A stretch of DNA of 64,000 nt from a virus (taxonomy: Duplodnaviria; Caudoviricetes): the IMG/VR virus record IMGVR_UViG_3300005444_000009, positions 2,191-66,190 of that record; one strand, written 5' to 3'. Positions 335 to 14,125 of the stretch are shown here, piece after piece (the stretch's first letter is position 1; each line of letters starts with the position of its first letter). The position numbers were made by a program, and so were the translations under genes. Below the pieces are notes generated by a model. It did no database searches. It was not told the origin of the DNA and saw only the letters and a list, made by a program, of their open reading frames with translations.

Positions 335-1018
335 TTACGTCAGCAGGAACGCGCCACACTGCGTCGGAACGGTAGGTGGCGGCGTCGTAGTGATGTTCCA
401 GAGCCAGTCGTCGATGTATGACGTCGTGTCGATCGCGCCCGGAAGCCACGACGTACCGGTACCCGGACCGTCACCCCACAACGAGGACGGGAAGTTCGTC
501 ATCGCCTCGGCGGACAACTCCAGGGGACCGTTCTCGATCGTAAACGAGCCGACCTTGGCGTTCCACACGTGTGGCCACGCCCAGTACACGTACCGCTGCG
601 CGCCGGTGATCGGATCACACTGACCTGGACCGCTCAGAGGTTGCCACGTCTCCAGCGAGAAGTGCGCCTCGGGGTTGTTGTAGCCGTAGGCACCACCCGT
701 GCCGGTGACCGACGCCGCGAGTAGCAGACGTGAGCCAAAGATGATGACCGACGCGTCCGGGTCGAGAACGCAGAGCTGGAGTGTCAGGTTCGAGTTTACG
801 TACTGGTTGGGACCCTGACGGTTGATGCACATCTTACCGTTGGCCTTCTTAGTACGAATCTGATCGCCGTCCTCGTACTGCGGCTCGGACTGGACGCTAA
901 TGTAGCCGTCCGTCACGACCACCGCGCTCGAGGCTCCGGTGACCGGCGAGCCGCACGTGTCGAGCTTGACTAAGCGCAGAACGGTACCCTGCGCAGCGGC
1001 ACCACACTGAGCTACCAT
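335..1018 (-). CDS. Major tail protein
   Basis: Start reassigned to ATG 1018 (AGGAG SD); MVAQCGAAAQGTVLRLVKLDTCGSP pattern of cluster-B-like tail tube proteins; follows the capsid genes. Confidence 0.7.
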   Translation of the reverse strand: MVAQCGAAAQGTVLRLVKLDTCGSPVTGASSAVVVTDGYISVQSEPQYEDGDQIRTKKANGKMCINRQGPNQYVNSNLTLQLCVLDPDASVIIFGSRLLLAASVTGTGGAYGYNNPEAHFSLETWQPLSGPGQCDPITGAQRYVYWAWPHVWNAKVGSFTIENGPLELSAEAMTNFPSSLWGDGPGTGTSWLPGAIDTTSYIDDWLWNITTTPPPTVPTQCGAFLLT

Positions 1019-1026
1019 GATGTCTC

Positions 1027-1926
1027 CTACGTCGCAGAGTTCCAGGTGCCTGTAATGACACCTCCGAGACTGACGGGAATCGCGAAGTGGCAGCAGTCCC
1101 ACATTAATGTAAACTGCTGCTCGACGATCAGCACCGTGTCATTGGTGCTGCGGCGCAGGATCTCACTCGCGTCTTGATCGATGAACATAGGTTCAGACTG
1201 CAGCATCTTCACGCTGCCCGTTGCGTAGATCCAGGTCGTACCCGCCGTAGGCGTCGCGCCAGCCGGTGACGTGCCTGTGTATCCCGGAGCTGGTACGATG
1301 ATTGAACCAAGCGGCGTAAGCAGTCGAGGGCCCTTCTTCTCCAAAACATGATTCGCCGCAAGGTGAACCCCGACGCCGCGCTGCATGTGAAGAATAGGTG
1401 TGCCGCTGTAGCAGTCGGCCATCGCCTGCTCGAGTCGACCGATGCCCTCGACGACGTCGACTGCACCTGTGACGATAGTGGTGGCCGCGGACTGAAGAGT
1501 AACTGTGGAGCCGCCGACAACCTCCGTGATTGCGGTGTCTTCGGCGAGGTGCTGTGACGTGTTGAAGTCGCCACCCGACCAAAACACACGCTCGACGATC
1601 GTCTGTGCGTTGTTGTTGTGCGCCGCTAGGGTTCGACGCCGCAGCTCTTCCATGCCCATGCCAACGAGTGAGCAGTCAACCCACGTGTAGACCGCGAACG
1701 AGTTCGAGGCCCGGTTACCCAGTGAGCCGGTGGCGGTCTTCGATGTACCAAAGCCGGTGACGCACTCCGTAGTCGTCTGCAGTGGGAATGAGCAGATATC
1801 AGGCGTGAACTGCACGCCAAGCTTCTGGTGTCCTCGATACGGATGTGGACCGTCGATCGCGTCGCGGAGCCGGTACAGCAGAGGCTCGAACTTCGGCGGG
1901 GTTACCCAGTCGCGGTTACTTACCAC
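1027..1926 (-). CDS. Second capsid protein, probable major capsid pentamer protein
   Basis: 299 aa directly downstream of the major capsid gene; same position and size as the Rosebush-type pentamer gene. Confidence 0.6.
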   Translation of the reverse strand: MVSNRDWVTPPKFEPLLYRLRDAIDGPHPYRGHQKLGVQFTPDICSFPLQTTTECVTGFGTSKTATGSLGNRASNSFAVYTWVDCSLVGMGMEELRRRTLAAHNNNAQTIVERVFWSGGDFNTSQHLAEDTAITEVVGGSTVTLQSAATTIVTGAVDVVEGIGRLEQAMADCYSGTPILHMQRGVGVHLAANHVLEKKGPRLLTPLGSIIVPAPGYTGTSPAGATPTAGTTWIYATGSVKMLQSEPMFIDQDASEILRRSTNDTVLIVEQQFTLMWDCCHFAIPVSLGGVITGTWNSAT

Positions 1927-1977: not shown

Positions 1978-3657
1978 TTAGACGCCACACTCGGTGAGGT
2001 CGGCCGCGCCGGTCGTACCGTCCGGGCAGATGTTGACCGTCAACCTGCGCACCTCGTGGCCCGGGTTGAACATCAGCCAGCACTCCTCCATCCACTCCGC
2101 GGTAAAGTCGTTGGTCTGGTTGAGAACCGAGTCGCGGATGATGCCGAGGTCGAGGCGTAGACCCGTGCCGAGCACGACGGTGCCGGGCGCGAAGAGCATG
2201 AACTCGACGGTGGTCGGCCACGCGGTGGGAATCGTACCAGGAACGCCCGGGAAGCCCGCGGTGCGCTCCTGGTAGTCAGCGACCCACTGAATGCGAATGT
2301 TGATCGCGTCGAACAGCGACATCAGGTAGGCGTCAGTCGCCGCCAGCATGTCGGTACCCGAGCCCATGCGCCTCCGCAGGTCGGATCGCATCGGACCGCG
2401 GAGCCAGCGGGGCGCCACAACCTCGAGAACCGCGTCCTGGCACATCGAATACCGCGACCGATAGTCCGTCGCCTGCAGCTCGAGCGCGCCGAGCACGTTG
2501 GCGACGACGCCGGCGCTCGCCGAGCCGTTGGTGACGGTGAACGAGGCGCTGAAGGCCCTGAGCTCGTTGATGCGCGCTCGGTTGATCTTGCGGAAGTGCG
2601 ACACCATCACGAGGCGCGTGTGATTCGCGATGAGCTCCGGGTAGGAGTCGTTGGTCAGGTTGCCGACGGTAAGGCAGATGCCGTCACAGTGGAGGCGAGC
2701 CTCGTTGAAGCCGGGACACGGCACTCGACCGCAGGTCTTAACGCCGGACTGCGCGGTACCAGTGACGGCCGCGATGTCTTGCGTCTCCGTCCAGGACCAG
2801 AGCGCGCCACCAAGCACGACGTCGGCAAACGACGGCGAGGTGGGCCAACGAAGGCCGCCACGGTTGATGCCGACGGTCGGCAGGTCGAGCGCGCCGTCCT
2901 CACAGACGATGTTGAAGAAGTCGTACGAGATCTCGGACGGAGAGCACCAGCCGCCGGCCGCGACGAGGATGTCCGGGTTCGCAGCTGCCGTCATGACGGC
3001 GTTGAACTCGGCCAACGTCGAGTCCGGACCGAGCGTGTACTTGTGGTCACGGATCAGCGAGGCGATCGGGATGCGCGGCGCGTCGAGGCCCCGCTGCGTG
3101 ATCGGCATGTGCTGCGCTCGCGCGGTCATCGCCGCTACGAGCTCCTCCATGCCGTCGAGCTTCTGTCCAGCGGCGAAGCCCGGGATGTCGGACGAGGCCG
3201 TCAGCACGGGCTCGGCGCGAGGAGCCGCGACGGCGGGCGCCTGGCGCTGCGCGTCGGCCAGCGACGGATTTCGGAAGTTACCCATCGGCCGAGGCTGCGT
3301 GGTCGCGCCGCCAACGTTGGCGGCCGCGGTGACGGGTTCGGCGACGGGAGCGGGCTCCGGCATCGGCTCAGGCTCCGGCTCGCGCAACTCGTCCATCAGC
3401 GCCTTGGCCGCGGTCTTCTTGTCGGTCGCCGCGGTAACCGCAGTCGCACGTCGCGTCTGCTCAAGCTTGACACGCTTGATGTCTCCGGCCAAGGTGGCCA
3501 TCTCGTCGGCCTCGGCAGCCTGCGTCGCTACGTCCGCGGTGTCACTCGCGAAGAGTGTGTCGAACCGCGTGTTTGCGGCCTCGACGAACTGAGTGAGCTG
3601 CTCAACGCTGAGGGCTGTGATGTCCTCAGGGAGGCTCGGAGTCTGCTGCTCAGGCAC
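1978..3657 (-). CDS. Major capsid (hexamer) protein with N-terminal scaffold-like domain
   Basis: 559 aa; helical Ala/Glu/Pro-rich N-terminus, then LVAAGGWCSPSEISYDF, the signature of cluster-B-like capsids. Confidence 0.85.
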   Translation of the reverse strand: MPEQQTPSLPEDITALSVEQLTQFVEAANTRFDTLFASDTADVATQAAEADEMATLAGDIKRVKLEQTRRATAVTAATDKKTAAKALMDELREPEPEPMPEPAPVAEPVTAAANVGGATTQPRPMGNFRNPSLADAQRQAPAVAAPRAEPVLTASSDIPGFAAGQKLDGMEELVAAMTARAQHMPITQRGLDAPRIPIASLIRDHKYTLGPDSTLAEFNAVMTAAANPDILVAAGGWCSPSEISYDFFNIVCEDGALDLPTVGINRGGLRWPTSPSFADVVLGGALWSWTETQDIAAVTGTAQSGVKTCGRVPCPGFNEARLHCDGICLTVGNLTNDSYPELIANHTRLVMVSHFRKINRARINELRAFSASFTVTNGSASAGVVANVLGALELQATDYRSRYSMCQDAVLEVVAPRWLRGPMRSDLRRRMGSGTDMLAATDAYLMSLFDAINIRIQWVADYQERTAGFPGVPGTIPTAWPTTVEFMLFAPGTVVLGTGLRLDLGIIRDSVLNQTNDFTAEWMEECWLMFNPGHEVRRLTVNICPDGTTGAADLTECGV

Positions 3658-3711
3658 AGGACAACCCTCTCGTGTGTGCTCTAAAGCTGGTGACCTGGCC
3701 CGTCGATTGCG

Positions 3712-3740
3712 ATACTACCTGACACTAAGCTACTTGTAAA
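3712..3740 (-). promoter_or_regulatory. Sigma70-type promoter for the capsid gene
   Basis: TTTACA-N17-TAGTAT, about 55 nt upstream of the capsid start. Confidence 0.55.
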
Positions 3741-3745
3741 AATTC

Positions 3746-3916
3746 CTACTCCGAGTTGGCGTTGCCGATCGCGTTCTGCGCCGACTGTGTGTACGTCTCA
3801 GCCTCACGCACCGCCTGCGCTGCCAGCGTCGCGAGCGCGAGCTGCGCGTCCGCCGCGTCCTGCGCGGCCTGCACGCTGGTAACCTGATCAGGTCGAGTAC
3901 GACCACATCCGCACAT
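3746..3916 (-). CDS. 56-aa head-module protein (MCGCG...)
   Basis: Not in ORF track. GGAGG SD; MCGCGRTRPDQ then Ala-rich helix; fills the gap between protease and capsid genes. Confidence 0.6.
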   Translation of the reverse strand: MCGCGRTRPDQVTSVQAAQDAADAQLALATLAAQAVREAETYTQSAQNAIGNANSE

Positions 3917-3918
3917 CT

Positions 3919-5928
3919 CTACCTCCCGAGTGACTTAGCCAGCTCCCGCTTACGCGACGCTGGATCACGACCGATGCTCTCCGCCAGCGCCTGCTTCGTG
4001 GACCGCACCAGCTGGTGCATGTCGACGCCCGCCGTCACCGGCGCATCGGTGAAGTTGACCGGCACCGCGGCCGCGGAGAGTACGCCGTCATTGTACAGCA
4101 CACTTGCCTTCGTCCTAGCGAGCGGAAAGCCCGGCACCGGCACGAGGTGAGCTGCGATGAACTCACGGATACCCGCGCGGTCAGGATGCGGCTGCACGTC
4201 CAGCGACAGGGCGCAGCCGAGCGCCTGCGCAACCTGGCTTGAGTCGGCCCCCGGGTTCAGCGCGCCTCCGACCCAGATGGCGCCGTCACGCGCGTAGCCG
4301 ACCCGGACGTTAGCCAGTACCGAGCACGAGTTATCGTAGTGCTCGATGCGGTCGTTGAGGGTGCCGTAGTTCTGCGTAGCCGCGTGACCGCAGCCGGCGG
4401 TGATGACTCCAGTAACAACCCTCTCACCTCCCTGCACGATGGTCTCGCCCTTGTGGAACCGGCTGAAGTCGAGGCTGCGCGGCACCTTAGTCTTGACGCT
4501 GCGGTGAGTCGTGTCGGCCGGCGCCACGATTCCGAACACGCGTCCCTCATCCGTGATCGTTAGCGCGCCAGTCGACACGACATCCGTGGGTTCATTGAAC
4601 CAGTGAGCGGGTGGCAGGTTCGGAATCGTGATCGTGTGCGACGACGCCGTTAGAACCGTCGAGTCGCAGTCGCAGTTCTCGGTCGGCTCGGCGGACGCCT
4701 TCAACGCGCCGGTGAAGCGGAGCTTCGCCTCGACGAACGCGGGGAACGGCACCATCGTCGCGCCACGGATGCGGCCGCGGTGAAAGATCGTGGTCTCGGG
4801 CTTAGCGAATGGGTTGCTTCCGTCCTCCGAGTCGGCGAAGACCATTTCGACATCGGCGTCCTTGACCTTGTCCACATCCACGGAGACGCCGCCAACGTTC
4901 ATCGTGTTGCGGATGCCGTCGCCGTGTTCGCCGGCCAGCGCTGAGCCGAACACGTTGCCCCAACCGTAGATCTCATTCGAGCGACGCGCAGCGTGCGTGA
5001 TCTCACCGACCGTGATGGAGCCGTTGTGTCCACCGATGTTCGCCGGCTGGTACTGCAGCGGCATCGGCAGTTCGGCCCAGTCGAGGCTACCCATGCCGAA
5101 CAGGCGACTGTCCCCCGACTCGACTCCCTCTACAACGAGCACACCCTCCCAAGGTTCATCGGCGTAGGTCTGCATCTCCTCAACCTTCTTTTTCTTACTG
5201 GCGGCAGTCAGCGCGAAGTCATTGTCATCTTCCTCGTCATAGTCGTTACTTTTACGATTAAGAAGTGAGTCATCATCCGCTACTGGAGGTCCCGGTTTAT
5301 ACTTCGCACGTCCCTCACGCGACAGTCGACTCTTCGTAGCCTCAAACTGATCTGATGTGACGTCTAGCATACCCTTCAGTGGGTTATCGACGAATTTTCC
5401 GTCTTTACCGTGTCGATGACCGTGATCATCAACGATGTCGAACGCCTCCATCACCGACCACCCATCAGGCAAGTTACCCGTAGCCTTGAGTTCACGTGCG
5501 CGCTTCTTAATAAACGTTAGCGCGCGTGCTCGATTCTTCGCTCGACCGATCGCCTGAATGGCATTACCTAGGTCCTTCGTGTTGCGGATTGGGTATGAAC
5601 CGTCGGGAAGTGCCTTACCCTCCTGGGCGAGGCGCTCGCGCTCCTCCTGGCTAATGTCCGCGAAGTAGATCAGCTCAGAGCCGCTCTCCACACCCTTCTC
5701 TGCGGGCCACTCACCCGTCGCAGCCTTATGGTACTCGGCGCACAGTCCCTGCGGCCGCGAGACGTGCCTGCCGAGCTGCGCCACGCAGCGTGCGAACGAG
5801 CCGTCGGTGCCCCACCCGATCTTAATGGCACCTGGACCGTGAACCCAGTAGTTGCGCAGGTCGTGTCCACCGCCCGGCGCGTTGACGTCACGCTCACGCG
5901 CGAGCTCCAGCTCGATGTCATCACTCAT
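3919..5928 (-). CDS. Capsid maturation protease with extra N-terminal domains
   Basis: Start reassigned to ATG 5928 (MSDDIEL). WEGVLVVEGVESGDSRLF...LPMPL protease core, preceded by a WGTDGSFARC...CAEYHKAATGEWP domain and an ALPDGSYPIRN...AIQAIGR domain. Confidence 0.75.
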   Translation of the reverse strand: MSDDIELELARERDVNAPGGGHDLRNYWVHGPGAIKIGWGTDGSFARCVAQLGRHVSRPQGLCAEYHKAATGEWPAEKGVESGSELIYFADISQEERERLAQEGKALPDGSYPIRNTKDLGNAIQAIGRAKNRARALTFIKKRARELKATGNLPDGWSVMEAFDIVDDHGHRHGKDGKFVDNPLKGMLDVTSDQFEATKSRLSREGRAKYKPGPPVADDDSLLNRKSNDYDEEDDNDFALTAASKKKKVEEMQTYADEPWEGVLVVEGVESGDSRLFGMGSLDWAELPMPLQYQPANIGGHNGSITVGEITHAARRSNEIYGWGNVFGSALAGEHGDGIRNTMNVGGVSVDVDKVKDADVEMVFADSEDGSNPFAKPETTIFHRGRIRGATMVPFPAFVEAKLRFTGALKASAEPTENCDCDSTVLTASSHTITIPNLPPAHWFNEPTDVVSTGALTITDEGRVFGIVAPADTTHRSVKTKVPRSLDFSRFHKGETIVQGGERVVTGVITAGCGHAATQNYGTLNDRIEHYDNSCSVLANVRVGYARDGAIWVGGALNPGADSSQVAQALGCALSLDVQPHPDRAGIREFIAAHLVPVPGFPLARTKASVLYNDGVLSAAAVPVNFTDAPVTAGVDMHQLVRSTKQALAESIGRDPASRKRELAKSLGR

Positions 5929-6169
5929 CTTCACTACCTCCGACCGCGGCGCGGTACGCGCCGCCGAGCTGAGCGTACTGCTTAGGTGTGAGGCGCGAGT
6001 CGTACTGCACCTCATCAAACGAGTTCTCCGCAGGCTCCGAGTCCTCGAGCGAGTTCTCGTCGACCTCGGCGCGCGGCTCCCAGCCAAAGTCGCGGAAGCG
6101 CGCGACGGTCTGACCAAGCGTAGTCCGGCCCTCGACCAGGGCATCAATCATGTCTGTGACTGCTGACAC
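5921..6169 (-). CDS. 82-aa acidic hypothetical protein
   Basis: Start and stop overlap both neighbours. Confidence 0.6.
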   Translation of the reverse strand: MSAVTDMIDALVEGRTTLGQTVARFRDFGWEPRAEVDENSLEDSEPAENSFDEVQYDSRLTPKQYAQLGGAYRAAVGGSEDE

Positions 6170-7689
6170 TACACCGCACCTTCCTTCGACACCAGCTTAG
6201 CAGGTTGGCCGTCAACGTCATTGCTGTACACAGCCCAGTTGTCGAAGGCGTTCGCCTTACGCAGCGACGAGAATCCGTGGCGCGTGTCAGCCGAGGTCAT
6301 CGCGTTCTGAATGTTCGCGGGAACGAATCGGCCGCCGAGGCCGTGTCCGCCGAGCCAGCTCTGCAGGTCCTGCCGGTAACGCTGCGCCACGCGCCGGCGG
6401 GAGGTCTCGTCGGAGACGTCGACGAAGATGCCGTCAACCCGCTTGTAGCCAGCCTCATCCATGCGCTTCACGCGGCTGAAGACGAGTCCTGGGTTAGCCA
6501 TCGTGCCGTCGAAAATGATGTTCTTGCGGTCACGAAACGCGCGATCGGCCAGCATGTCCGCGATTCGAACAGACTCACGGTGAACCAGCGTCGACCGCTC
6601 CATCGGCGAGAAGTCACCGGGTAGGTCCGGAACGAGGCCGCGTCTCGCTAGCTCATCCTTGATCTCATCAGGATCGATCTTGAGAAACTGGCTGAGGTCA
6701 ACTCCCGCCTGCTGCGTGATGACGGTAGACTTACCGGCGCCGGCGTTGCCGCCGAGCAGAATCGCCCGACCACCGTTCGGCACGTCGGCGGCCTTGGCGT
6801 AGAAGTCGTCAACGATCTCACGGTGAATCGCGTCGCGTTCGCGGCTCCAGACGCCGTTCTTATCTTGGTGCGTGAAGTTGGTACCGCTGTAGCGGTTCTT
6901 GTAGAGAGTCGACTCCAGCGCATGAACACGCTTCGCCAGATTCACGTCGCTGATAACGCGGAAGCCCTTGTACGGATTGTGGTCCTGCTGGTTGTGTTGC
7001 CCGGGAAGGTGGAACTCCTCCAGCGCGGCGGCCGTCAGCGACCCGAGCGGCACGTCGACGTTCTCTCCCCCGAAGGCGACACGCACACGGTCGAACGTCA
7101 CAGGACCGACGCGCTCGGCGGCCTGCGTGAACAGCTCGTGCGGGTGCTCGGAGTACGCCAGCGTCACGTGCGGTATCCACGGGCTGTGGTTCTCAGCGAT
7201 CGTGTAGTCGTCCGACTCTCGTACCTCGTCGAAAACGTTGTCGTGAAGCTGCTCGAGCTCCGCGCCGCCGTTCCCGACGCCGAGTACCAGGGCGGGCTCA
7301 TCACCTGTCGGGTTGAAGACGTTGACCGCAAACGCCTGCGCCTGGATCGGTCCAAGGCCGCTGGCAGCGTTCCGGACGACTCCTAGGATCTGATCCCGCT
7401 GGTCAGGCGTGAAGTTTGTCGCGTCGCCGAGGTAGACCAGCGTCAGGTGCAGCTGATCGGGATCCTCGAAGCCGTCCAGCGCCAGTCGACGCGCGTCCTC
7501 CTCGGTTGGCACCAGCGCGATCATTGCGCCGTCGTGCGTGTCAGCGGCCGCTACTGTGATCTTCGGTACGCCGAAGGTGTACGTGTCAGCTCCCGCGAGG
7601 AACGCAACTGCCTCAGCCTCGGTGAAGCCGGGCTCGTCGTCGATCAGCTCGAACTGGACGTTAGTCGGGTCACTCAGCGGGGTCGTCAC
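6169..7689 (-). CDS. 2H phosphoesterase (LigT/Acb1-like) fused to a zeta-toxin-like P-loop kinase
   Basis: Two HxT motifs (HLTLVY, HVTLAY); C-terminal GGNAGAGKST Walker A, IDPDEIK and FDGT motifs. Confidence 0.8.
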   Translation of the reverse strand: MTTPLSDPTNVQFELIDDEPGFTEAEAVAFLAGADTYTFGVPKITVAAADTHDGAMIALVPTEEDARRLALDGFEDPDQLHLTLVYLGDATNFTPDQRDQILGVVRNAASGLGPIQAQAFAVNVFNPTGDEPALVLGVGNGGAELEQLHDNVFDEVRESDDYTIAENHSPWIPHVTLAYSEHPHELFTQAAERVGPVTFDRVRVAFGGENVDVPLGSLTAAALEEFHLPGQHNQQDHNPYKGFRVISDVNLAKRVHALESTLYKNRYSGTNFTHQDKNGVWSRERDAIHREIVDDFYAKAADVPNGGRAILLGGNAGAGKSTVITQQAGVDLSQFLKIDPDEIKDELARRGLVPDLPGDFSPMERSTLVHRESVRIADMLADRAFRDRKNIIFDGTMANPGLVFSRVKRMDEAGYKRVDGIFVDVSDETSRRRVAQRYRQDLQSWLGGHGLGGRFVPANIQNAMTSADTRHGFSSLRKANAFDNWAVYSNDVDGQPAKLVSKEGAV

Positions 7690-10600
7690 GGCTCCACCCT
7701 CAATCTTACCTTCGCGCCGGAGCTGTACAACGGCTGAACGCTGAGCACACGGTATCGAAGTCCCGCCGCGAGCAGCATCTCATACTCCGACTTGTGTTTA
7801 CTGATGTTCCCGTAACCGCCGACGTATGCCGCTGGGGTACCCTCTGGAACCTCAATAGTGATCTCAACGTTGCCGGACCACGTTCCCTTCTCGACGCTAG
7901 TAGATAGGAACCCCTTATCCTGAAAGACCTTACCCTCAAACTTCTTAATGTCGTTAAACGTTGCGGCGTCCGTAAGACCGGGAAACTGTGATGCATCGGT
8001 CTTCCGATAGACGATAATGTCACGTGTAATCGGCCTCATTGCGTCCTGCGCATGCTGCGCGCTTCGCGCAGCGGAGAGGTTTAGGCTCGACTCCGACGTC
8101 TTAAGGCCGCGAAGAACGCCATTCATCTCCTTGTATGAATCTCCCGTGTACTTAATCAGTGCAGATCTCTGAGAAGACTTCCACTCAGTATCCGGTGTAC
8201 CGGTCATAGTCTTCTGCATAAACTGCGCTTCGGAGTCGGAGATCGGCTCAAACGTCACATTTTTCGTGTGAGGTACACCAAGTTCACTTGGGTTCTTGAC
8301 CTTCGCCAGAAGCGCCTGTAGACCTAACCCCGGAACGGTTGAGCCGGACGGCGTCGTTACGGTCGACGAGTTCAGGACCTTCGTCGCGGTGCTCTTACCT
8401 GACGGCGTCTGTAGCCAGTCGAGAATTTTCTTCTCGTATGCGTTCTTATTTCCACCCACGGTGTACTTTGACGCACGCTCATCAATGACCTTGAGTGCCT
8501 GTAGAAGGTTAAGCTTGTCGAGCGGGTAACTCGCGTTGTGCGCCTCGACGGCCTTGTGCAGCTTCTTAAAGATGTTGGCGGGCTGTGAACTTAGGGTTGT
8601 CGGCGTGCCGCCATACTTAAAGTTCTGCCAGATGGCGTTCTTCTGCGTGTCCGCGAGTAGCGGTGGTGTGCCGTGCATCGCCTGCAGCTGCGCCGCGTCG
8701 AACTTAGAGGGCGCGGTCGGCTTCTTTGGTGGTGTTGGTAGCGCGGGCGCTGACAGCGTCGGCACCGCGGGTGTCGGCGTACCGGAGACGCTCGGTCCAA
8801 AGCCGCTGGTGCCGAGCGCCGACGCGCCGGGTGGCGGCGTCACCCAGTCCGTGTCACCGCTAAACTTCTTGTAGGCCTCACCCTTTCCGTAGCCCGCGAA
8901 GTTAGTCCACGTGCCGTCACTCATTTGTGTCTGAAGAATGAACTTCTTGGTGGACTCTCTCCACGCGAGTCTCATCTTCAAACCGTTAAGTGAGTTAGTT
9001 TTCTCCGCGATAACCGCGCCGTCGGGATAAGACTGCTTATAGATCGCGTTCGTGTTCAATTTGATTGGGACGCCGCCCTTACCGCCGAGCGTGCCGGTGG
9101 ACTTCAGGGTCGACGTGGTCGAGTTCGCGGGACTCGGCAGAGCTGACGTACTCGGCGGCGCGGTAGTCGTCAGCGCGGCGGTCTTACCGGGGATACCCTT
9201 AGAACTGATGTCCTTCGGTCCCTGCTTACTCGCGGGCACGACGGTCAGCGTGACGACCTGTTCGGTGTGATCACCGTACTGCGCCTTGTCGGCGGCGGTC
9301 GCGGCGCGAACCTCGTTCACGTGGAAGTTCGTACCGGCGCCGAGAATGAACTCGTTCTCGTGGCTGTAGCCGGGAGTGGCGCTGCTGACGTAGACGCCCG
9401 GCGTACCCTCGGGTGCATTAATGATGACCTTGATCGGCTTCTTCGCGTAGTCGAAGCTAATGTTCGTCGGCGCCACGACGCTGGTCGACACGAAGCCGCG
9501 GTCAGTGATCTTCGTACCCTCGAGCTTCTTCAGCTTATCGGTCGAGATCTTCATCGTCTCGAAGCCGAACTGCTGCGCACCCGTGCCGCGGTGCAGCTTA
9601 ATGTTCCTCGTCAGCGGCGTCATGGCGCCCTGCAGCGTCGCCGCGGACGTGGCGGCCTGCGCCAACTGTGAGTCACTGAACAGTTTAAGCCGAGTCTCGT
9701 CGTTGCGCAAAACGCCGTTCATCGACTGGTAGCCGGTCTTCGTCGTATAGAAACTGACGGCCGACTTCTCCGCAGGTGTCCACTGCTTCTTACCCGATAG
9801 AAGAAGCATGTCGTGCTGCAACTTATTCATTTCGTCGGTCGTGACGTCGCTAAACGACTTCTGTGAGACCTTAGGTTGGCTAATGTCGCCGACAAACTTC
9901 GTCGCACTGTGTGCCGAGAGATGATGATTGTAGCCGTGTGGTGGTGGAGTCGACGGCGTGGGTGGCAGTGGCGGAGGTAGTGGCGGAATCGACTTAGTGC
10001 CGGCCGTGTTAGTCGCGGTAGGCTTAAGCTTACCATTGTCGATGAGCTTCTGAACCTCGTCCTCGAGCAGCTCATTGCCCTTGAAGTCGACGAGTCCTGC
10101 CCAAATGCCGTAGCCACCTGCGCCGTCAGGACCACCGAAGTCAGGCGAGTCCAGCGAGTACACCGCGGCGCCTGAGCCGTCGTTGAAGTACTTAATCCAG
10201 GCAATCTGCTTACCGTCGGCGTTGAACGCGGGCGACATGAACTGCGGTCCAGAAATGTCATCCGGGTCGACCTTGACCTTCGAGGTCACCTTCGGCGCCG
10301 GACTTAGCGGTGGAGCACTGCCCGACTTAAGGCTGTCCATAAACGCAACGAGGTTGCTCCACTTACCCATGGCTTTCAGCGTTGCGGTCTTCTTCTCTGC
10401 GACTGCCTTTGCCGCAGGTGACATTGAGTCCCACTTGGCCTGATCGACCTCGAGCGCAGCCCAACTTGCGAAGTCGCCGTTAGTCATGTTAGTGAGCTTG
10501 TCCACCAGTGCGGCGTCGCTGTCGTTAGACACGTCGATCGTGTGCCACGTCGAGATCTGGGTACTAGCCGAACCCATGCCAAACGTCGTGGCGTTGTACG

Positions 10601-12479
10601 CACCTGCCTCAATGAGCTTCTTGTCGTTGTCAGAGAGCTTGTCCCAGACGTCCTTCTTACCCGCTAGGTTCTTCGCAAACCACGCGTCGAATGCCAGCGG
10701 CGCGGTCGCTCCACCGGGTGGGAAGTTAAGACTGGCCAACGTAACGGGGGCGTTCGGGTCAGGTGCGTCGGGCTCGAAGCCGGGCATAATCTGCTTACCC
10801 GACGACGCCGCCCAGTTCGGGTCGTTCTCCAGGTACGTCTGCAACTGCCCCTGGTCATACGTCGCGACCGCGAGCCAACCGGGTCCCATCTGCGTCTGGC
10901 GCACGAACTGCTTCTTGTCGTCATTCCAGACGATGCGCTGCGGGTTGCCGTACAGAGGATTGTTCTTCTCGGCGATCAGCGCGCCGTGTGCGAACTTCTG
11001 GCCGAGGTCAATTCCGATCTTCTCCGCCGGCGACTTGACCGTCGGCGCGGCGGAGCCGGGCACCACCCAGTCGCTCTCCTTTGAGAACTTCTTATAGGCT
11101 TCACCCTTACCGTAGCCCGCGTGAGGCACCCACGTCGCGCCGTCGAGCTTGTACACGACGAACTTCTTCGTACTCTCGTTCCAGCGAAGCTGCCACTCGC
11201 CCTTCGCGTCGACCTTCTCCGCCACAACCGCCATGTGTGCGTACTTCTGCTTATAGATGACGTTCGTGTTGATGTGAATCGGCTTGCCGGTAGGCTTCTT
11301 AGGATTTAGCTTAGGTGTTGGCGCAGGCACTCCACCGCCGGCGGCTGCCTCAGCCTCAGCTACAGCCTCCTTTACGTCCTTCCAGTCACCACCGTGAAGT
11401 TTCTTTTCGAGCTCACCGATCGTCAACTTTTCGGAAACGTTCATCCACTTACCGGAGATCAGCTTCTGAACGTAGTACCCAGAGCCGCTTTTTTGTACGC
11501 GCTTTCCTGAACTCTCGTTAACGCCGAGAAGTAGGGTACCATTCGACGTTGCACTTTGAACGATCTCTAGGAGCTTAGGTATGCTTACCATTTTTTCGGC
11601 AAACTGTCCGTGAGCATCACGAGGGTGCTTTGCCTCGTCGGCGGCGGTCCACTTCTTGGCGGCAGTTAACGTCTCGGAATCGTCATCACTAAAGACAAAC
11701 TCTACGGTGCAGCGGCACTGAATGACGTTGTCGGCGCGGCCGTTCGGGTCGCCGGGAAACTGCAGGTACTCGCCGCCGACGCTGAACGCTTGGTTGAGGC
11801 CAACGGTCTGGCCGTCGGCGAGCCGGTGCTCCGGTCGTGTGCGCTCATCATCGGTGGCCAGCCAGCGCTTAGAGCACTCGGCGTCTGTAAAGCCGCCGAG
11901 CTGCACCTGCGCCACCGACGCGGCGTTCGCGGCGGAGATCACCTCCGTCTTTGCAATGACCAGCGCACGCTTCTCGCCGATGTCCTTCGCCACGTTGCGA
12001 ACCCGCGCGGCGAGCTGGTGCGTCGTCTCGCCCGCCTCATAGCCCTCGGCCAGCGTGTCTTTGATCGAGTTCCAGATCAGGTTGCCAACGTTCTTTAGTC
12101 GATTCACCGCGGCACGAAGGTAGTCCTCGGCGGTCAGCGGGTCGATCGGCAAGGTGTCAACGTGCAAAGTGTCGCCGACGAAGCTCCAGGTCTGCTGCGC
12201 CGCGGCGGTGTACGTCTCAAGGAGAAACGGGTACAGCACGGCATCCACGTAGCTGGACCACGTGTCGGGCGCGGCGCTCAGCTCGACGGGGGCCAGGGTG
12301 GCGACCCCGGCCACGGCCGCGGTGGTCGAAATGCTCGGCACCGGTCCAGCCGCCGCGGTAACCAGGGGGTTAAGGCTGACGGCTCTGAAGGCGGCACGGA
12401 TGCCGTTCCGCGCGAGGCCCTCCATGACCTGCTCGCGTGTTTCAAGCTGCGACATGGATAGACCAGCTACATGCCTCAT
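7686..12479 (-). CDS. MuF (gpF-like) minor head protein with repeat domains and two VIP2-like ADP-ribosyltransferase domains
   Basis: MuF motif KRWLATDDERTRPEH...FPGDP...IQCRC; ART1 HRG/FVSTS/ENE; ART2 YRK/FLSTS/EYE; alternative start ATG 12455. Confidence 0.85.
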   Translation of the reverse strand: MRHVAGLSMSQLETREQVMEGLARNGIRAAFRAVSLNPLVTAAAGPVPSISTTAAVAGVATLAPVELSAAPDTWSSYVDAVLYPFLLETYTAAAQQTWSFVGDTLHVDTLPIDPLTAEDYLRAAVNRLKNVGNLIWNSIKDTLAEGYEAGETTHQLAARVRNVAKDIGEKRALVIAKTEVISAANAASVAQVQLGGFTDAECSKRWLATDDERTRPEHRLADGQTVGLNQAFSVGGEYLQFPGDPNGRADNVIQCRCTVEFVFSDDDSETLTAAKKWTAADEAKHPRDAHGQFAEKMVSIPKLLEIVQSATSNGTLLLGVNESSGKRVQKSGSGYYVQKLISGKWMNVSEKLTIGELEKKLHGGDWKDVKEAVAEAEAAAGGGVPAPTPKLNPKKPTGKPIHINTNVIYKQKYAHMAVVAEKVDAKGEWQLRWNESTKKFVVYKLDGATWVPHAGYGKGEAYKKFSKESDWVVPGSAAPTVKSPAEKIGIDLGQKFAHGALIAEKNNPLYGNPQRIVWNDDKKQFVRQTQMGPGWLAVATYDQGQLQTYLENDPNWAASSGKQIMPGFEPDAPDPNAPVTLASLNFPPGGATAPLAFDAWFAKNLAGKKDVWDKLSDNDKKLIEAGAYNATTFGMGSASTQISTWHTIDVSNDSDAALVDKLTNMTNGDFASWAALEVDQAKWDSMSPAAKAVAEKKTATLKAMGKWSNLVAFMDSLKSGSAPPLSPAPKVTSKVKVDPDDISGPQFMSPAFNADGKQIAWIKYFNDGSGAAVYSLDSPDFGGPDGAGGYGIWAGLVDFKGNELLEDEVQKLIDNGKLKPTATNTAGTKSIPPLPPPLPPTPSTPPPHGYNHHLSAHSATKFVGDISQPKVSQKSFSDVTTDEMNKLQHDMLLLSGKKQWTPAEKSAVSFYTTKTGYQSMNGVLRNDETRLKLFSDSQLAQAATSAATLQGAMTPLTRNIKLHRGTGAQQFGFETMKISTDKLKKLEGTKITDRGFVSTSVVAPTNISFDYAKKPIKVIINAPEGTPGVYVSSATPGYSHENEFILGAGTNFHVNEVRAATAADKAQYGDHTEQVVTLTVVPASKQGPKDISSKGIPGKTAALTTTAPPSTSALPSPANSTTSTLKSTGTLGGKGGVPIKLNTNAIYKQSYPDGAVIAEKTNSLNGLKMRLAWRESTKKFILQTQMSDGTWTNFAGYGKGEAYKKFSGDTDWVTPPPGASALGTSGFGPSVSGTPTPAVPTLSAPALPTPPKKPTAPSKFDAAQLQAMHGTPPLLADTQKNAIWQNFKYGGTPTTLSSQPANIFKKLHKAVEAHNASYPLDKLNLLQALKVIDERASKYTVGGNKNAYEKKILDWLQTPSGKSTATKVLNSSTVTTPSGSTVPGLGLQALLAKVKNPSELGVPHTKNVTFEPISDSEAQFMQKTMTGTPDTEWKSSQRSALIKYTGDSYKEMNGVLRGLKTSESSLNLSAARSAQHAQDAMRPITRDIIVYRKTDASQFPGLTDAATFNDIKKFEGKVFQDKGFLSTSVEKGTWSGNVEITIEVPEGTPAAYVGGYGNISKHKSEYEMLLAAGLRYRVLSVQPLYSSGAKVRLRVEP

Positions 12480-14125
12480 CCAGCGCCTCCTCGTGGTCGA
12501 GAGGGCTGCTGGGGTTCGGCGACCGACGAGCTCGTCGGCGACGGGCCAGCGTTACCGCTCCGCCCGCCGGCCGCCTGGTCTGGGTTGGGCTTAGGCTGCT
12601 CGAGCCGCTGGGGCTGGCCGGCGAGCTGCGCCTTGGCCAACTGCTCCGCCTGCTGAACCGTCTGCTCGGGCGGCTTCTCATCGGGAAACAGCTTGTAGAA
12701 CGAGTCGGGAATTGGAAGACCCTGGGCCGCCAGGCCGACCAGAATCTGCTTCTTAAGTTCCTGGTCATCGGGCTTGTCGGCGTCGTCCAAGCCGATGCTC
12801 TTGAGGTACGCCTCATCGGAGATCGAGTTTCGACCGCGTGCGTCCCGCGCGTTCTCGGAGTTGTCGGGATCTGCCGTTAGGTCGGAGATGTCGTACCAGA
12901 CGACGTACCGACCCTTGCCGTCCGGTGTCGTGATACTGCCGCCACCCGCGGTCAGCATCGGCCAGAGAAACACCTCAGTCAAGCCGCCGACGAGCAGCTC
13001 CATCGTGCTGCCGAAGTAGTACTTGACGTTGTCGGCGCTGTCGAGGTAGGCGTTCCAGTGGTTAAGGTCGCCCTTACCCTCCATTGCCTCAGGAGGTGCG
13101 GGAAGTTGACGCGCCAGGCTTTCGACGGCCGCGCGACGCGCATCAATAACCTTCTCGTCAACCCCGTTCGCGATAATGAGGTGCTGAAATTTATCGATGA
13201 ACTCCGACTTAACGCGCAGCGGTACCGGCATCGCACTTCCCGGACTACCCGGGTCGCGAATGCCACGTTGGCCGATAGCGACAAGCTCGGCGATGAACGG
13301 GTCTGGCGCGTCCTTGAACTGCGGGTTAACCGGAAACGTGATTTCCTCCGGAATGAGGAGAAAGCCGTTGAAGACCAATCGAGAGAGCAGCGTCGCGACA
13401 ATGTGTCGGTTGTACAGGTCAACCTGGCGCAGCGTCGTCAACGCGTTCCGTGACCAGCTGGTGACGTTGAAGTCGAGCTCGTCGTCAGGTCGGAAGATGC
13501 GCGCCACGAGACTCTGCGGTCCGAGCGGTCTCCAGCGGTCCGGCTCGTCGAGAACGTCGAAACCCGTCAGAACCTCACCGTAGGCATTCTTTAGTGGTCG
13601 ACCCTGCGCGTCTCTCAGTGGCTGCGTAGAGCGCCTGACCTGCTTCGCCGACTTAACATCGTAGACTCGCCGACCCCCCTGGTTTAACTTGTCTTCGGCG
13701 ATGAAGAAGCCGACGCCGGGAATGCCGAGGTGTCGACCCCACTTAAAGAGGTACTGCGTCTCACCACCTTTAGCGTTGTTGACGAGGTCCTGCACCAGCT
13801 CGGCGGCGGGACCTTCGGTAATCGGCTCGGGCTCCCTAAGACCGTCATCGTAGCGCTGGATTCCCGCCACTAGGTGCATTCGACTAATGCCCGACGCGTA
13901 CCAGTCCATCACGCTGCCGTACTCACCGACGCTACGCGAGTACTCCCAGAGTTCATCCTGCCAGCTTCGGTAGTTCAGAGCGTAGGACTCGCGGTTGACG
14001 CCCTGCAGCGACTGTGCCGACGCGATGAGGATCTGCCGCTCGTGCTCGCTGAGCTCCAGCAGCGCGCGCTGCTCGGCCAGCGCTCCCCCGCGGGGTCGTG
14101 TGCGGTTCGCCGGCAGGTCAGCCAC
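12476..14125 (-). CDS. Portal protein
   Basis: 549 aa upstream of MuF; WQDELWEYSRSVGE, FNGFLLIPEEI and HWNAY patterns of cluster-B-like portals. Confidence 0.8.
   Translation of the reverse strand: MADLPANRTRPRGGALAEQRALLELSEHERQILIASAQSLQGVNRESYALNYRSWQDELWEYSRSVGEYGSVMDWYASGISRMHLVAGIQRYDDGLREPEPITEGPAAELVQDLVNNAKGGETQYLFKWGRHLGIPGVGFFIAEDKLNQGGRRVYDVKSAKQVRRSTQPLRDAQGRPLKNAYGEVLTGFDVLDEPDRWRPLGPQSLVARIFRPDDELDFNVTSWSRNALTTLRQVDLYNRHIVATLLSRLVFNGFLLIPEEITFPVNPQFKDAPDPFIAELVAIGQRGIRDPGSPGSAMPVPLRVKSEFIDKFQHLIIANGVDEKVIDARRAAVESLARQLPAPPEAMEGKGDLNHWNAYLDSADNVKYYFGSTMELLVGGLTEVFLWPMLTAGGGSITTPDGKGRYVVWYDISDLTADPDNSENARDARGRNSISDEAYLKSIGLDDADKPDDQELKKQILVGLAAQGLPIPDSFYKLFPDEKPPEQTVQQAEQLAKAQLAGQPQRLEQPKPNPDQAAGGRSGNAGPSPTSSSVAEPQQPSRPRGGAG

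Follow-up and report, generated by a model that had tools for sequence, protein, structure and literature searches.

Prohead proteases that trim the capsid protein, themselves and packaged proteins at a single consensus are a known kind, represented by those of T4, phiKZ and SPN3US. The T4 protease gp21 cuts gp23, IPI-III and Alt after Glu (L/I-x-E). Alt is an ADP-ribosyltransferase (ART) that T4 packages and injects (PMC5512222). In SPN3US, a single cleavage motif is common to many head and ejection proteins, and the protease trims itself; long propeptides with several copies of the motif are cut into pieces, and the ejected proteins carry N-terminal propeptides (PMC10052503). The pseudorabies virus (PRV) protease, a herpesvirus assemblin, cuts after Ala at Y-L-Q-A/T (release site) and V-Q-A/S (maturation site) (PMC4498786). 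Polyvalent MuF cargo is also already known, and fusions of MuF to effectors are predicted to travel in the head (PMC5512222, PMC7302621). Here we describe a locus related to all of these in a 64,000-nucleotide stretch (the window) of a tailed phage genome (Duplodnaviria; Caudoviricetes; IMG/VR record IMGVR_UViG_3300005444_000009, positions 2,191 to 66,190). Its capsid protein, head protease and two multidomain proteins encoded beside them share the motif [L/V/I/M]-[T/V]-A-[A/S] at their domain borders. Sequence comparison strongly supports the view that this motif is a functional signal common to the head proteins, and it is probably the cut signal of the prohead protease.

The identities of the four proteins, first proposed in an initial annotation of the window, were borne out by profile and structure searches:

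7686-12479, minus strand, MuF - double ART protein, 1597 residues, overlapping the end of the portal gene
6169-7689, minus strand, 2H phosphoesterase-zeta kinase fusion, 506 residues
3919-5928, minus strand, head protease, 669 residues from the ATG at 5928
1978-3657, minus strand, major (hexamer) capsid protein, 559 residues (phrog_777, E 8.5e-123)

All the motif copies quoted in that annotation were found on the minus strand. They are listed here together with a further variant site near the end of the protease; pLDDT is the predicted local distance difference test of the structural models:

12351-12362, minus strand, V40-T-A-A43, at the end of the 42-residue N-terminal leader of the MuF protein
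11658-11669, minus strand, L271-T-A-A274, directly after the MuF domain
7546-7557, minus strand, variant T45-V-A-A48, at the end of the 47-residue leader before 2H
7027-7038, minus strand, L218-T-A-A221, between 2H and zeta
5200-5211, minus strand, L240-T-A-A243, before the protease core, in the linker 206-251 (pLDDT<50)
4642-4653, minus strand, L426-T-A-S429, after the protease core, in the linker 410-431 (pLDDT<50), similar to a herpesvirus release site
4069-4080, minus strand, variant L617-S-A-A620, about 50 residues from the C-terminus of the protease, a candidate similar to a maturation site
3322-3333, minus strand, V-T-A-A, capsid protein, residue 109
3193-3204, minus strand, L152-T-A-S155, capsid protein, in the block R-x-E-x-V-L-[VT]-A-S-[AS]-D-I-P
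2956-2967, minus strand, L231-V-A-A234, capsid protein, abutting the invariant G-G-W-C-x-P-S-E

The four head proteins hold 10 copies of the motif against 1.52 expected, a number reached by 0 of 5000 composition-preserving shuffles, and the other 75 open reading frames (ORFs) of the genome hold 6 against 5.36 expected. L-T-A-[AS] alone occurs 5 times in the head proteins (0.42 expected) and 0 times elsewhere in the genome. The excess over an Ala-matched background that the initial annotation made a test of its proposal is therefore present in the head proteins, with the rest of the proteome at background. The same analysis was extended to relatives obtained from two IMG/VR scans, which yielded about 80 head modules with capsid identities of 46-98%, and to six cultured phages (TP1604, phiSAJS1, Atuin, Leaf, GTE6 and Acadian). 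Across 82 related loci, the protease, 2H, MuF and ART proteins hold 232 copies against 44 expected (5.3x) and the capsid proteins 200 against 20; the 779 other ORFs hold 85 against 100 (0.85x). Three permuted motifs of the same composition stay at about 1x in the protease, 2H, MuF and ART proteins. They are uneven elsewhere, one reaching 4.3x in the capsid protein and another 4.0x in the pentamer-type capsid protein, because of conserved blocks. The proteins are 10-14% Ala and the motif is short and degenerate, so it could be conceived as a functionless by-product of Ala/Thr-rich linkers in a high-GC phage. This explanation is extremely improbable, as it is contradicted by the shuffles and by the permuted motifs in the same proteins. 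Moreover, the portal, protease, scaffold and capsid proteins of L5, an unrelated actinophage with Ala-rich head proteins, hold 0 sites, and the position of the motif is kept down to 46% capsid identity and, in the cultured phages, across five host genera. The whole pattern recurs in the six cultured phages, including a motif-free pentamer-type protein. In homologues, where the initial annotation had called for a check of position, the motif is kept within otherwise variable linkers. The codons for identical residues vary from site to site, so selection acts at the protein level; a DNA-level recombination signal at the module joints was ruled out on the same ground. Around the motif there are preferences for acidic residues at P5-P8, Val or Ala at P4, a small residue at P2', Asp at P3' and Pro at P4'-P5', and the recognition site would therefore be wider than four residues.

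A sequence search for solved structures found none for the capsid protein or the protease, and the folds given below are those of AlphaFold2 (AF2) models. The capsid model consists of a helical scaffold-like region, a linker and a body with the HK97 fold (Z 13-14 to the phiRSA1, HK97 and Che8 capsids). Long helices span residues 18-91, residues 96-149 are disordered, the segment 150-233 is moderately confident and 234-247 is of low confidence, and the HK97-fold body follows. The three capsid copies quoted in the initial annotation are real, but three further ones lie at residues 74, 173 and 222, and all six precede residue 235:

2956-3657, minus strand, capsid pro-region, residues 1-234, with motif copies at residues 74, 109, 152, 173, 222 and 231

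Among 50 distinct capsids, 183 sites lie before the G-G-W-C block (14.2 expected) and 13 in the HK97 body, which is background (10.9 expected). Such a distribution is what would be expected of a pro-region chopped into small pieces, with up to six apparent cuts. Of 39 distinct contexts, 37 retain the block around L152-T-A-S155, the second position of the motif being T, V, I or L, and most tblastn alignments to cultured phages begin exactly at residue 152. Almost every relative, Acadian, GTE6, TP1604 and Leaf among them, has the L231-V-A-A234 site, which sits where the HK97 maturation site aligns: the mature HK97 chain (104-383) aligns to residues 218-543 of the model and prohead II (125-383) to 249-543, and HK97-fold capsids align from about residue 218-250 onward. 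The last cut of the capsid protein could fall at either residue 154 or residue 233. The structural alignment points to about 218-234, while the conservation of 152-233 and one GTE6 peptide point to the upstream site. As in HK97 gp4/gp5, a co-assembled protease is predicted to remove a scaffold-like N-terminal region from the capsid protein. HK97, by contrast, is cut after Lys103 and has a pro-region less than half as long; in the present one, two strong candidate sites enclose a conserved segment of 80 residues.

A pro-region is absent from the pentamer-type capsid protein, whose homologues in TP1604, Atuin and Leaf hold 0 copies of the motif. Over 50 such proteins from the related loci the motif is depleted (1 copy against 7.7 expected), as would be fitting for a protein that has to withstand the protease.

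The only sequence families matched by the head protease are the PHROG maturation-protease families, and its tblastn matches are annotated as capsid maturation protease. In gene order it comes after the portal and MuF genes and before the capsid gene, as do assemblin/gp21-fold prohead proteases. A 742-residue reading of the protease ORF was rejected as an Arg-rich wrong-frame extension across the 82-residue acidic ORF upstream. The protein is laid out as an N-domain, a core, a C-domain and C-terminal helices, which the AF2 model renders as four folded parts with low-confidence linkers between them. Two of these parts bear on the cleavage question:

4696-5175, minus strand, protease core, residues 252-411, assemblin/T4 gp21 fold
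4123-4635, minus strand, C-domain (prC), residues 432-602, with invariant His475, His515, His530, Ser575 and Asp577

In an unbiased comparison with 48,161 chains, the varicella-zoster virus (VZV), T4 gp21 and PRV proteases came first. Aligned with VIA-align, residues 253-411 of the model give Z 9.1 to the VZV protease (root mean square deviation 3.2, 116 residues aligned), 8.6-8.7 to T4 gp21 (124 aligned), 8.5 to the PRV protease and 8.0 to that of human cytomegalovirus. Ser349 is invariant (39/39 sequences). His301 is in its column in 24 of the 39, and some others have a His in neighbouring columns, which suggests alignment wobble. The post-core site is a strict motif in 43 of 58 relatives, within a linker whose length otherwise ranges between 20 and 350 residues; Ala428 hardly ever varies and precedes (H/Y)-T-I-T-I-P. 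Near the C-terminus, L617-S-A-A620 lies in a low-pLDDT stretch (603-633), and most relatives have [LI]-[VTS]-A-[AS] at the aligned position. This layout resembles that of herpesvirus UL26, which has the same protease fold and the same type of site (hydrophobic-x-Ala followed by Ser, Ala or Thr): in both, the core is followed at once by a site, then by a further domain and a site about 50 residues from the C-terminus, a candidate one here. L-T-A-S 426 and L-S-A-A 617 are thus candidates for UL26-type release and maturation sites, although the C-terminal one is missing in the clade of MuF-fused proteases. The two systems have no sequence similarity, and here the capsid protein has a pro-region of its own and the protease an extra N-domain.

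The C-domain requires separate consideration. It is more conserved than the core, and its five His, Ser and Asp residues are invariant in 39/39 sequences. A second catalytic domain and a scaffold are both possible roles. A tandem duplication relating it to the core was ruled out (hhalign probability 2%). It has no Pfam match, and whole-model searches, which mainly test the core, gave no convincing fold match for either the N- or the C-domain. From its sequence, the C-domain could act on the motif in place of the core; alternatively, a host peptidase preferring Ala-x-Ala-like sites could do so. Such an origin of the cuts would agree with the conservation and the catalytic-looking residues of the C-domain, with its language-model neighbours, which include Peptidase_S80/S77 clusters (0.93-0.94), and with the failure of Pfam to match the whole protease at E<=0.01 or the core alone at E<=1 (S77, S78 and S80 included). 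Nevertheless, it is the core that has the assemblin/gp21 fold and the invariant Ser, the C-domain has neither a fold match in the whole-model searches nor a profile match to any peptidase and is unrelated to the core, and the substrates lack signal peptides that would expose them to signal peptidase. Cutting by another activity is hence quite improbable.

In the MuF-ART protein, Pfam identifies Phage_Mu_F (PF04233, E 1.1e-13, residues 138-259) and two stretches of ADPrib_exo_Tox (PF03496, E 1.5e-47), and phrog_3895 covers residues 897-1059. A MuF domain with a C-terminal effector, encoded beside the portal gene, is the layout of the MuF (SPP1 gp7/Mu gp30) effector fusions. The second protein contains 2_5_RNA_ligase2 (E 6.9e-11, residues 77-194) and Zeta_toxin (E 2.1e-19, residues 309-467). 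The 42-residue MuF leader and the 47-residue 2H leader both end in a capsid-type consensus whose position is kept in relatives, where the motif ends N-terminal leaders of 40-70 residues in 2H and MuF proteins. In the related loci, most MuF proteins have it 40-50 residues from the N-terminus, and about 25 relatives have [LVI]-[TVI]-A-[AS] 5-10 residues before the first 2H strand (T-G-A-M-I-A-L). The I-T-V-A-A-A quoted for the 2H protein in the initial annotation falls outside the pattern of that annotation, but it is aligned with these canonical sites. The stand-alone 2H proteins of five relatives (L003, L007, L008, L009 and L010) end exactly at the position of the site between 2H and zeta. After the MuF domain, 15 of 19 MuF-ART relatives have a strict motif, often following an acidic run. 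The 1324 residues downstream of L271-T-A-A274 contain both ART domains and no further strict site, so that the two would leave as one piece; the predicted release of the double-ART module from MuF would stand, but not a separation of the two domains.

Several other features of these proteins were observed. The MuF and ART parts are two overlapping ORFs in L010. A module of about 80 residues stands in front of each ART domain (8835-9074 and 11058-11288, minus strand; residues 1136-1215 and 398-474), and BLAST self-hits show it to be repeated in the ART proteins of relatives as well. Directly after the site between 2H and zeta there is a His-rich motif, F-H-(L)-x-G-x-H-(N/D)-Q-x-x-H (positions 6970-7010 of the window, residues 226-241), of which relatives (L008, L005, L033, L045 and L057) have one or two copies in their protease linkers and 2H proteins. 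It may be a metal-binding or targeting tag.

The modules are shuffled to a great extent among the relatives, and the joints can be compared. Over the head modules L001-L089, 2H occurs alone in 13 proteins, with the protease in 17, with MuF and the protease in 2 more, with MuF alone in 1 and with zeta in 1; 17 proteins are MuF-protease fusions. At independently formed joints the motif is present in 1/1 2H-zeta, 3/8 2H-protease and 2/2 MuF-2H cases, the 2H-protease fusions L006 and L023 having M-T-A-S or L-T-A-A at the joint. Several joints in relatives are nonetheless devoid of the strict motif, which was found at 0/10 of those between 2H and the protease core, at 2/16 of those between MuF and the protease core, and in 7 of 19 linkers between N-domain and core (the other 12 have none). 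A looser [LVIM]-x-A-[AS] would take in the L-N-A-A and L-Y-A-S joints of MuF-protease fusions; it was left unscored as too degenerate. One possibility is, then, that the motif is cut only in the capsid pro-region and the protease linkers, and that MuF-ART and 2H-zeta stay intact in the head or are not packaged. The many cargo joints without the motif fit this restriction, as does the fact that the best-conserved sites are the capsid ones and the post-core protease site, and MuF-effector fusions are generally discussed as acting while fused (PMC5512222, PMC7302621). Yet the site after MuF is retained within linkers that are otherwise unalignable, the end of 2H coincides with the motif in some independent fusions, the 2H and MuF leaders end in it and the cargo group shares the enrichment that the permuted controls lack. 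A restriction to capsid and protease is therefore unlikely, though it deserves some weight.

That the motif is cut by the head protease, as the initial annotation proposed, is well supported, though indirectly, by the fold of the core, the core-flanking sites in linkers, the confinement of the capsid sites to the pro-region and the ends of the 2H proteins. The specificity would differ from that of T4 gp21 (after Glu) and be assemblin-like, with the cut placed after the first Ala of the motif (P1), because the herpesvirus assemblins, which have the same fold, cut after Ala. A number of observations weigh against cleavage at these sites. To our knowledge, those prohead proteases of phages that have been characterised cleave after Glu or Lys and not after Ala. 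Literature searches on this capsid and protease family found no measured cleavage sites or products. The counts across homologues share ancestry and are not independent events, so position is stronger evidence than counts. Some copies may be structural, as they lie in predicted strands (capsid 151-154, protease 616-621) or, possibly, in a conserved block of the portal proteins of relatives. Finally, mass spectrometry (MS) of virions of GTE6, a distant relative, recovered fully tryptic peptides of the capsid pro-region, one of which spans an intact L-V-A-S (PMC4524720 Table S5). These peptides imply that processing in GTE6 is incomplete or absent, or that this copy, which is at a non-conserved position, is unused; the preparation may have held proheads. 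The N-terminal sequencing for cluster J was set aside as cleavage evidence, as it concerns an unrelated HK97-type capsid.

The predicted strands and the pro-region peptides retained in GTE6 virions would also suit an uncut binding or assembly signal, for instance a strand docking onto the scaffold, the capsid interior or the protease in the manner of a capsid-targeting tag, and the capsid blocks are indeed conserved on either side of the motif. Most copies, however, are in low-confidence linkers at the ends of domains. Up to six copies in the pro-region and one at each end of the core fit degradation and release better than docking, and the pattern agrees with the substrate consensus of the structurally related herpesvirus proteases. 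A docking signal is thus improbable, and cleavage by the head protease remains the favored explanation.

If cleavage takes place, it would occur inside the assembled prohead and be carried out by the protease with the assemblin/gp21-fold core. The 234-residue scaffold-like pro-region of the capsid protein would be cut at up to six places so that its pieces can leave, giving a mature capsid chain that starts at residue 234 (326 residues) or at 155 (405 residues). The protease core (about residues 243-428, about 186 residues) would be freed from its N- and C-terminal domains. Leaders of 42 to 47 residues would be removed from the MuF and 2H proteins, 2H (about 173 residues) would be split from the zeta kinase (about 286 residues) and MuF (about 231 residues) from a single double-ART piece of 1324 residues. 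Once freed, the enzymes would remain in the head and pass into the host together with the DNA. The idea of polyproteins whose enzymes are released in the head, as put forward in the initial annotation, is therefore partly supported, and the comparative evidence adds to it a signal shared by the borders. Delivery of the freed enzymes into the host is about as likely as not. The presence of 2H, zeta and ART in the virion and their ejection are inferred from the fusion to MuF, from the position in the head operon and by analogy with T4 Alt and internal proteins, with MuF/gp7 proteins and with SPN3US.

Judged from its sequence, this system would share with T4 a single assemblin/gp21-fold prohead protease, one short consensus on capsid and packaged proteins, the removal of N-terminal leaders and a packaged ART delivered with the DNA. 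It differs in that the conserved residue is Ala rather than Glu, that the cargo is joined to MuF and 2H modules and would be released at inter-domain joints instead of only being trimmed at the N-terminus, and that the phage, an actinophage of siphovirus type, has distinct capsid proteins for hexamers and pentamers. In phiKZ and SPN3US (proteases gp175 and gp245, respectively), the motif ends in Glu (A-x-E) and the substrates lose N-terminal propeptides without being split into several enzymes; their cuts were measured by MS, whereas those proposed here are read from the sequence. The MuF polymorphic toxins and polyvalent proteins, such as the Microbacterium MuF-VIP2, also have a portal-adjacent MuF fused to ART, 2H or other effectors. 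Zincin-like or C-terminal assemblin-like peptidase domains have been proposed for them, with no cut-site consensus (Jamet 2017; Iyer, Aravind 2017), whereas here one specific motif ties the cargo to the capsid protein and the protease.

The window is nearly all of a 66.2-kb phage genome (61% G+C). The source phage is a siphovirus-type soil actinophage of high-GC bacteria. A megablast search against sequenced phages found no close DNA relative. At the protein level, homologues of both the capsid protein and the protease are present in about 880-930 sequenced phages of Mycobacterium, Gordonia, Microbacterium, Arthrobacter and Streptomyces, all below 40% identity. The head operon runs on the minus strand in the order portal, MuF-ART, 2H-zeta, protease, small ORF and capsid, and its remaining genes and neighbours are the following:

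12476-14125, minus strand, portal
5921-6169, minus strand, acidic ORF of 82 residues, overlapping the zeta gene stop and the protease gene start
3746-3916, minus strand, ORF of 56 residues
1027-1926, minus strand, pentamer-type capsid protein
335-1102, minus strand, major tail protein

The acidic ORF, which has no copy of the motif, may encode a partner or an inhibitor of the zeta kinase. The portal homologues of L003, L008 and L010 have an M-H-L-V-A-A block at about residues 79-97, which reads L-V-A-G in this phage; the 5.8x enrichment of the motif in portal proteins is probably structural and reflects no cut site.

What is new is a candidate rule with Ala at P1, as in assemblins, replacing Glu or Lys, and its use at the inter-domain joints of MuF, 2H, zeta and ART fusions. 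The candidate rule also spans a large group of actinophages whose capsid cleavage site had been called unpredictable: a survey of actinophage capsid structures concluded that the delta-domain cleavage site cannot be predicted (10.1101/2022.09.09.507160). It is possible, but doubtful, that this large group, with about 880-930 sequenced phages carrying homologues, shares the assemblin substrate rule and the order of parts, that is, a rule and a polyprotein layout in addition to the fold that tailed phages and herpesviruses have in common.

If the proposal is correct, sequence alone would suffice to read off both the mature capsid protein and the enzymes that the head carries. Mature capsid, protease and head cargo would become predictable across a large group of phages infecting Mycobacterium, Gordonia, Streptomyces, Microbacterium and Arthrobacter, among them the cluster B mycobacteriophages, which are in wide use. 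An Ala-specific phage protease would also tighten the functional link between the maturation proteases of phages and those of herpesviruses. Finally, a siphovirus-type phage of medium size would be seen to stock its head with enzymes made in advance (a 2H phosphoesterase, a zeta-type kinase and two ADP-ribosyltransferases), which are carried as parts of MuF and 2H fusions and freed by proteolysis, and such pre-made head enzymes bear on how host defence could be pre-empted in the first seconds of infection.

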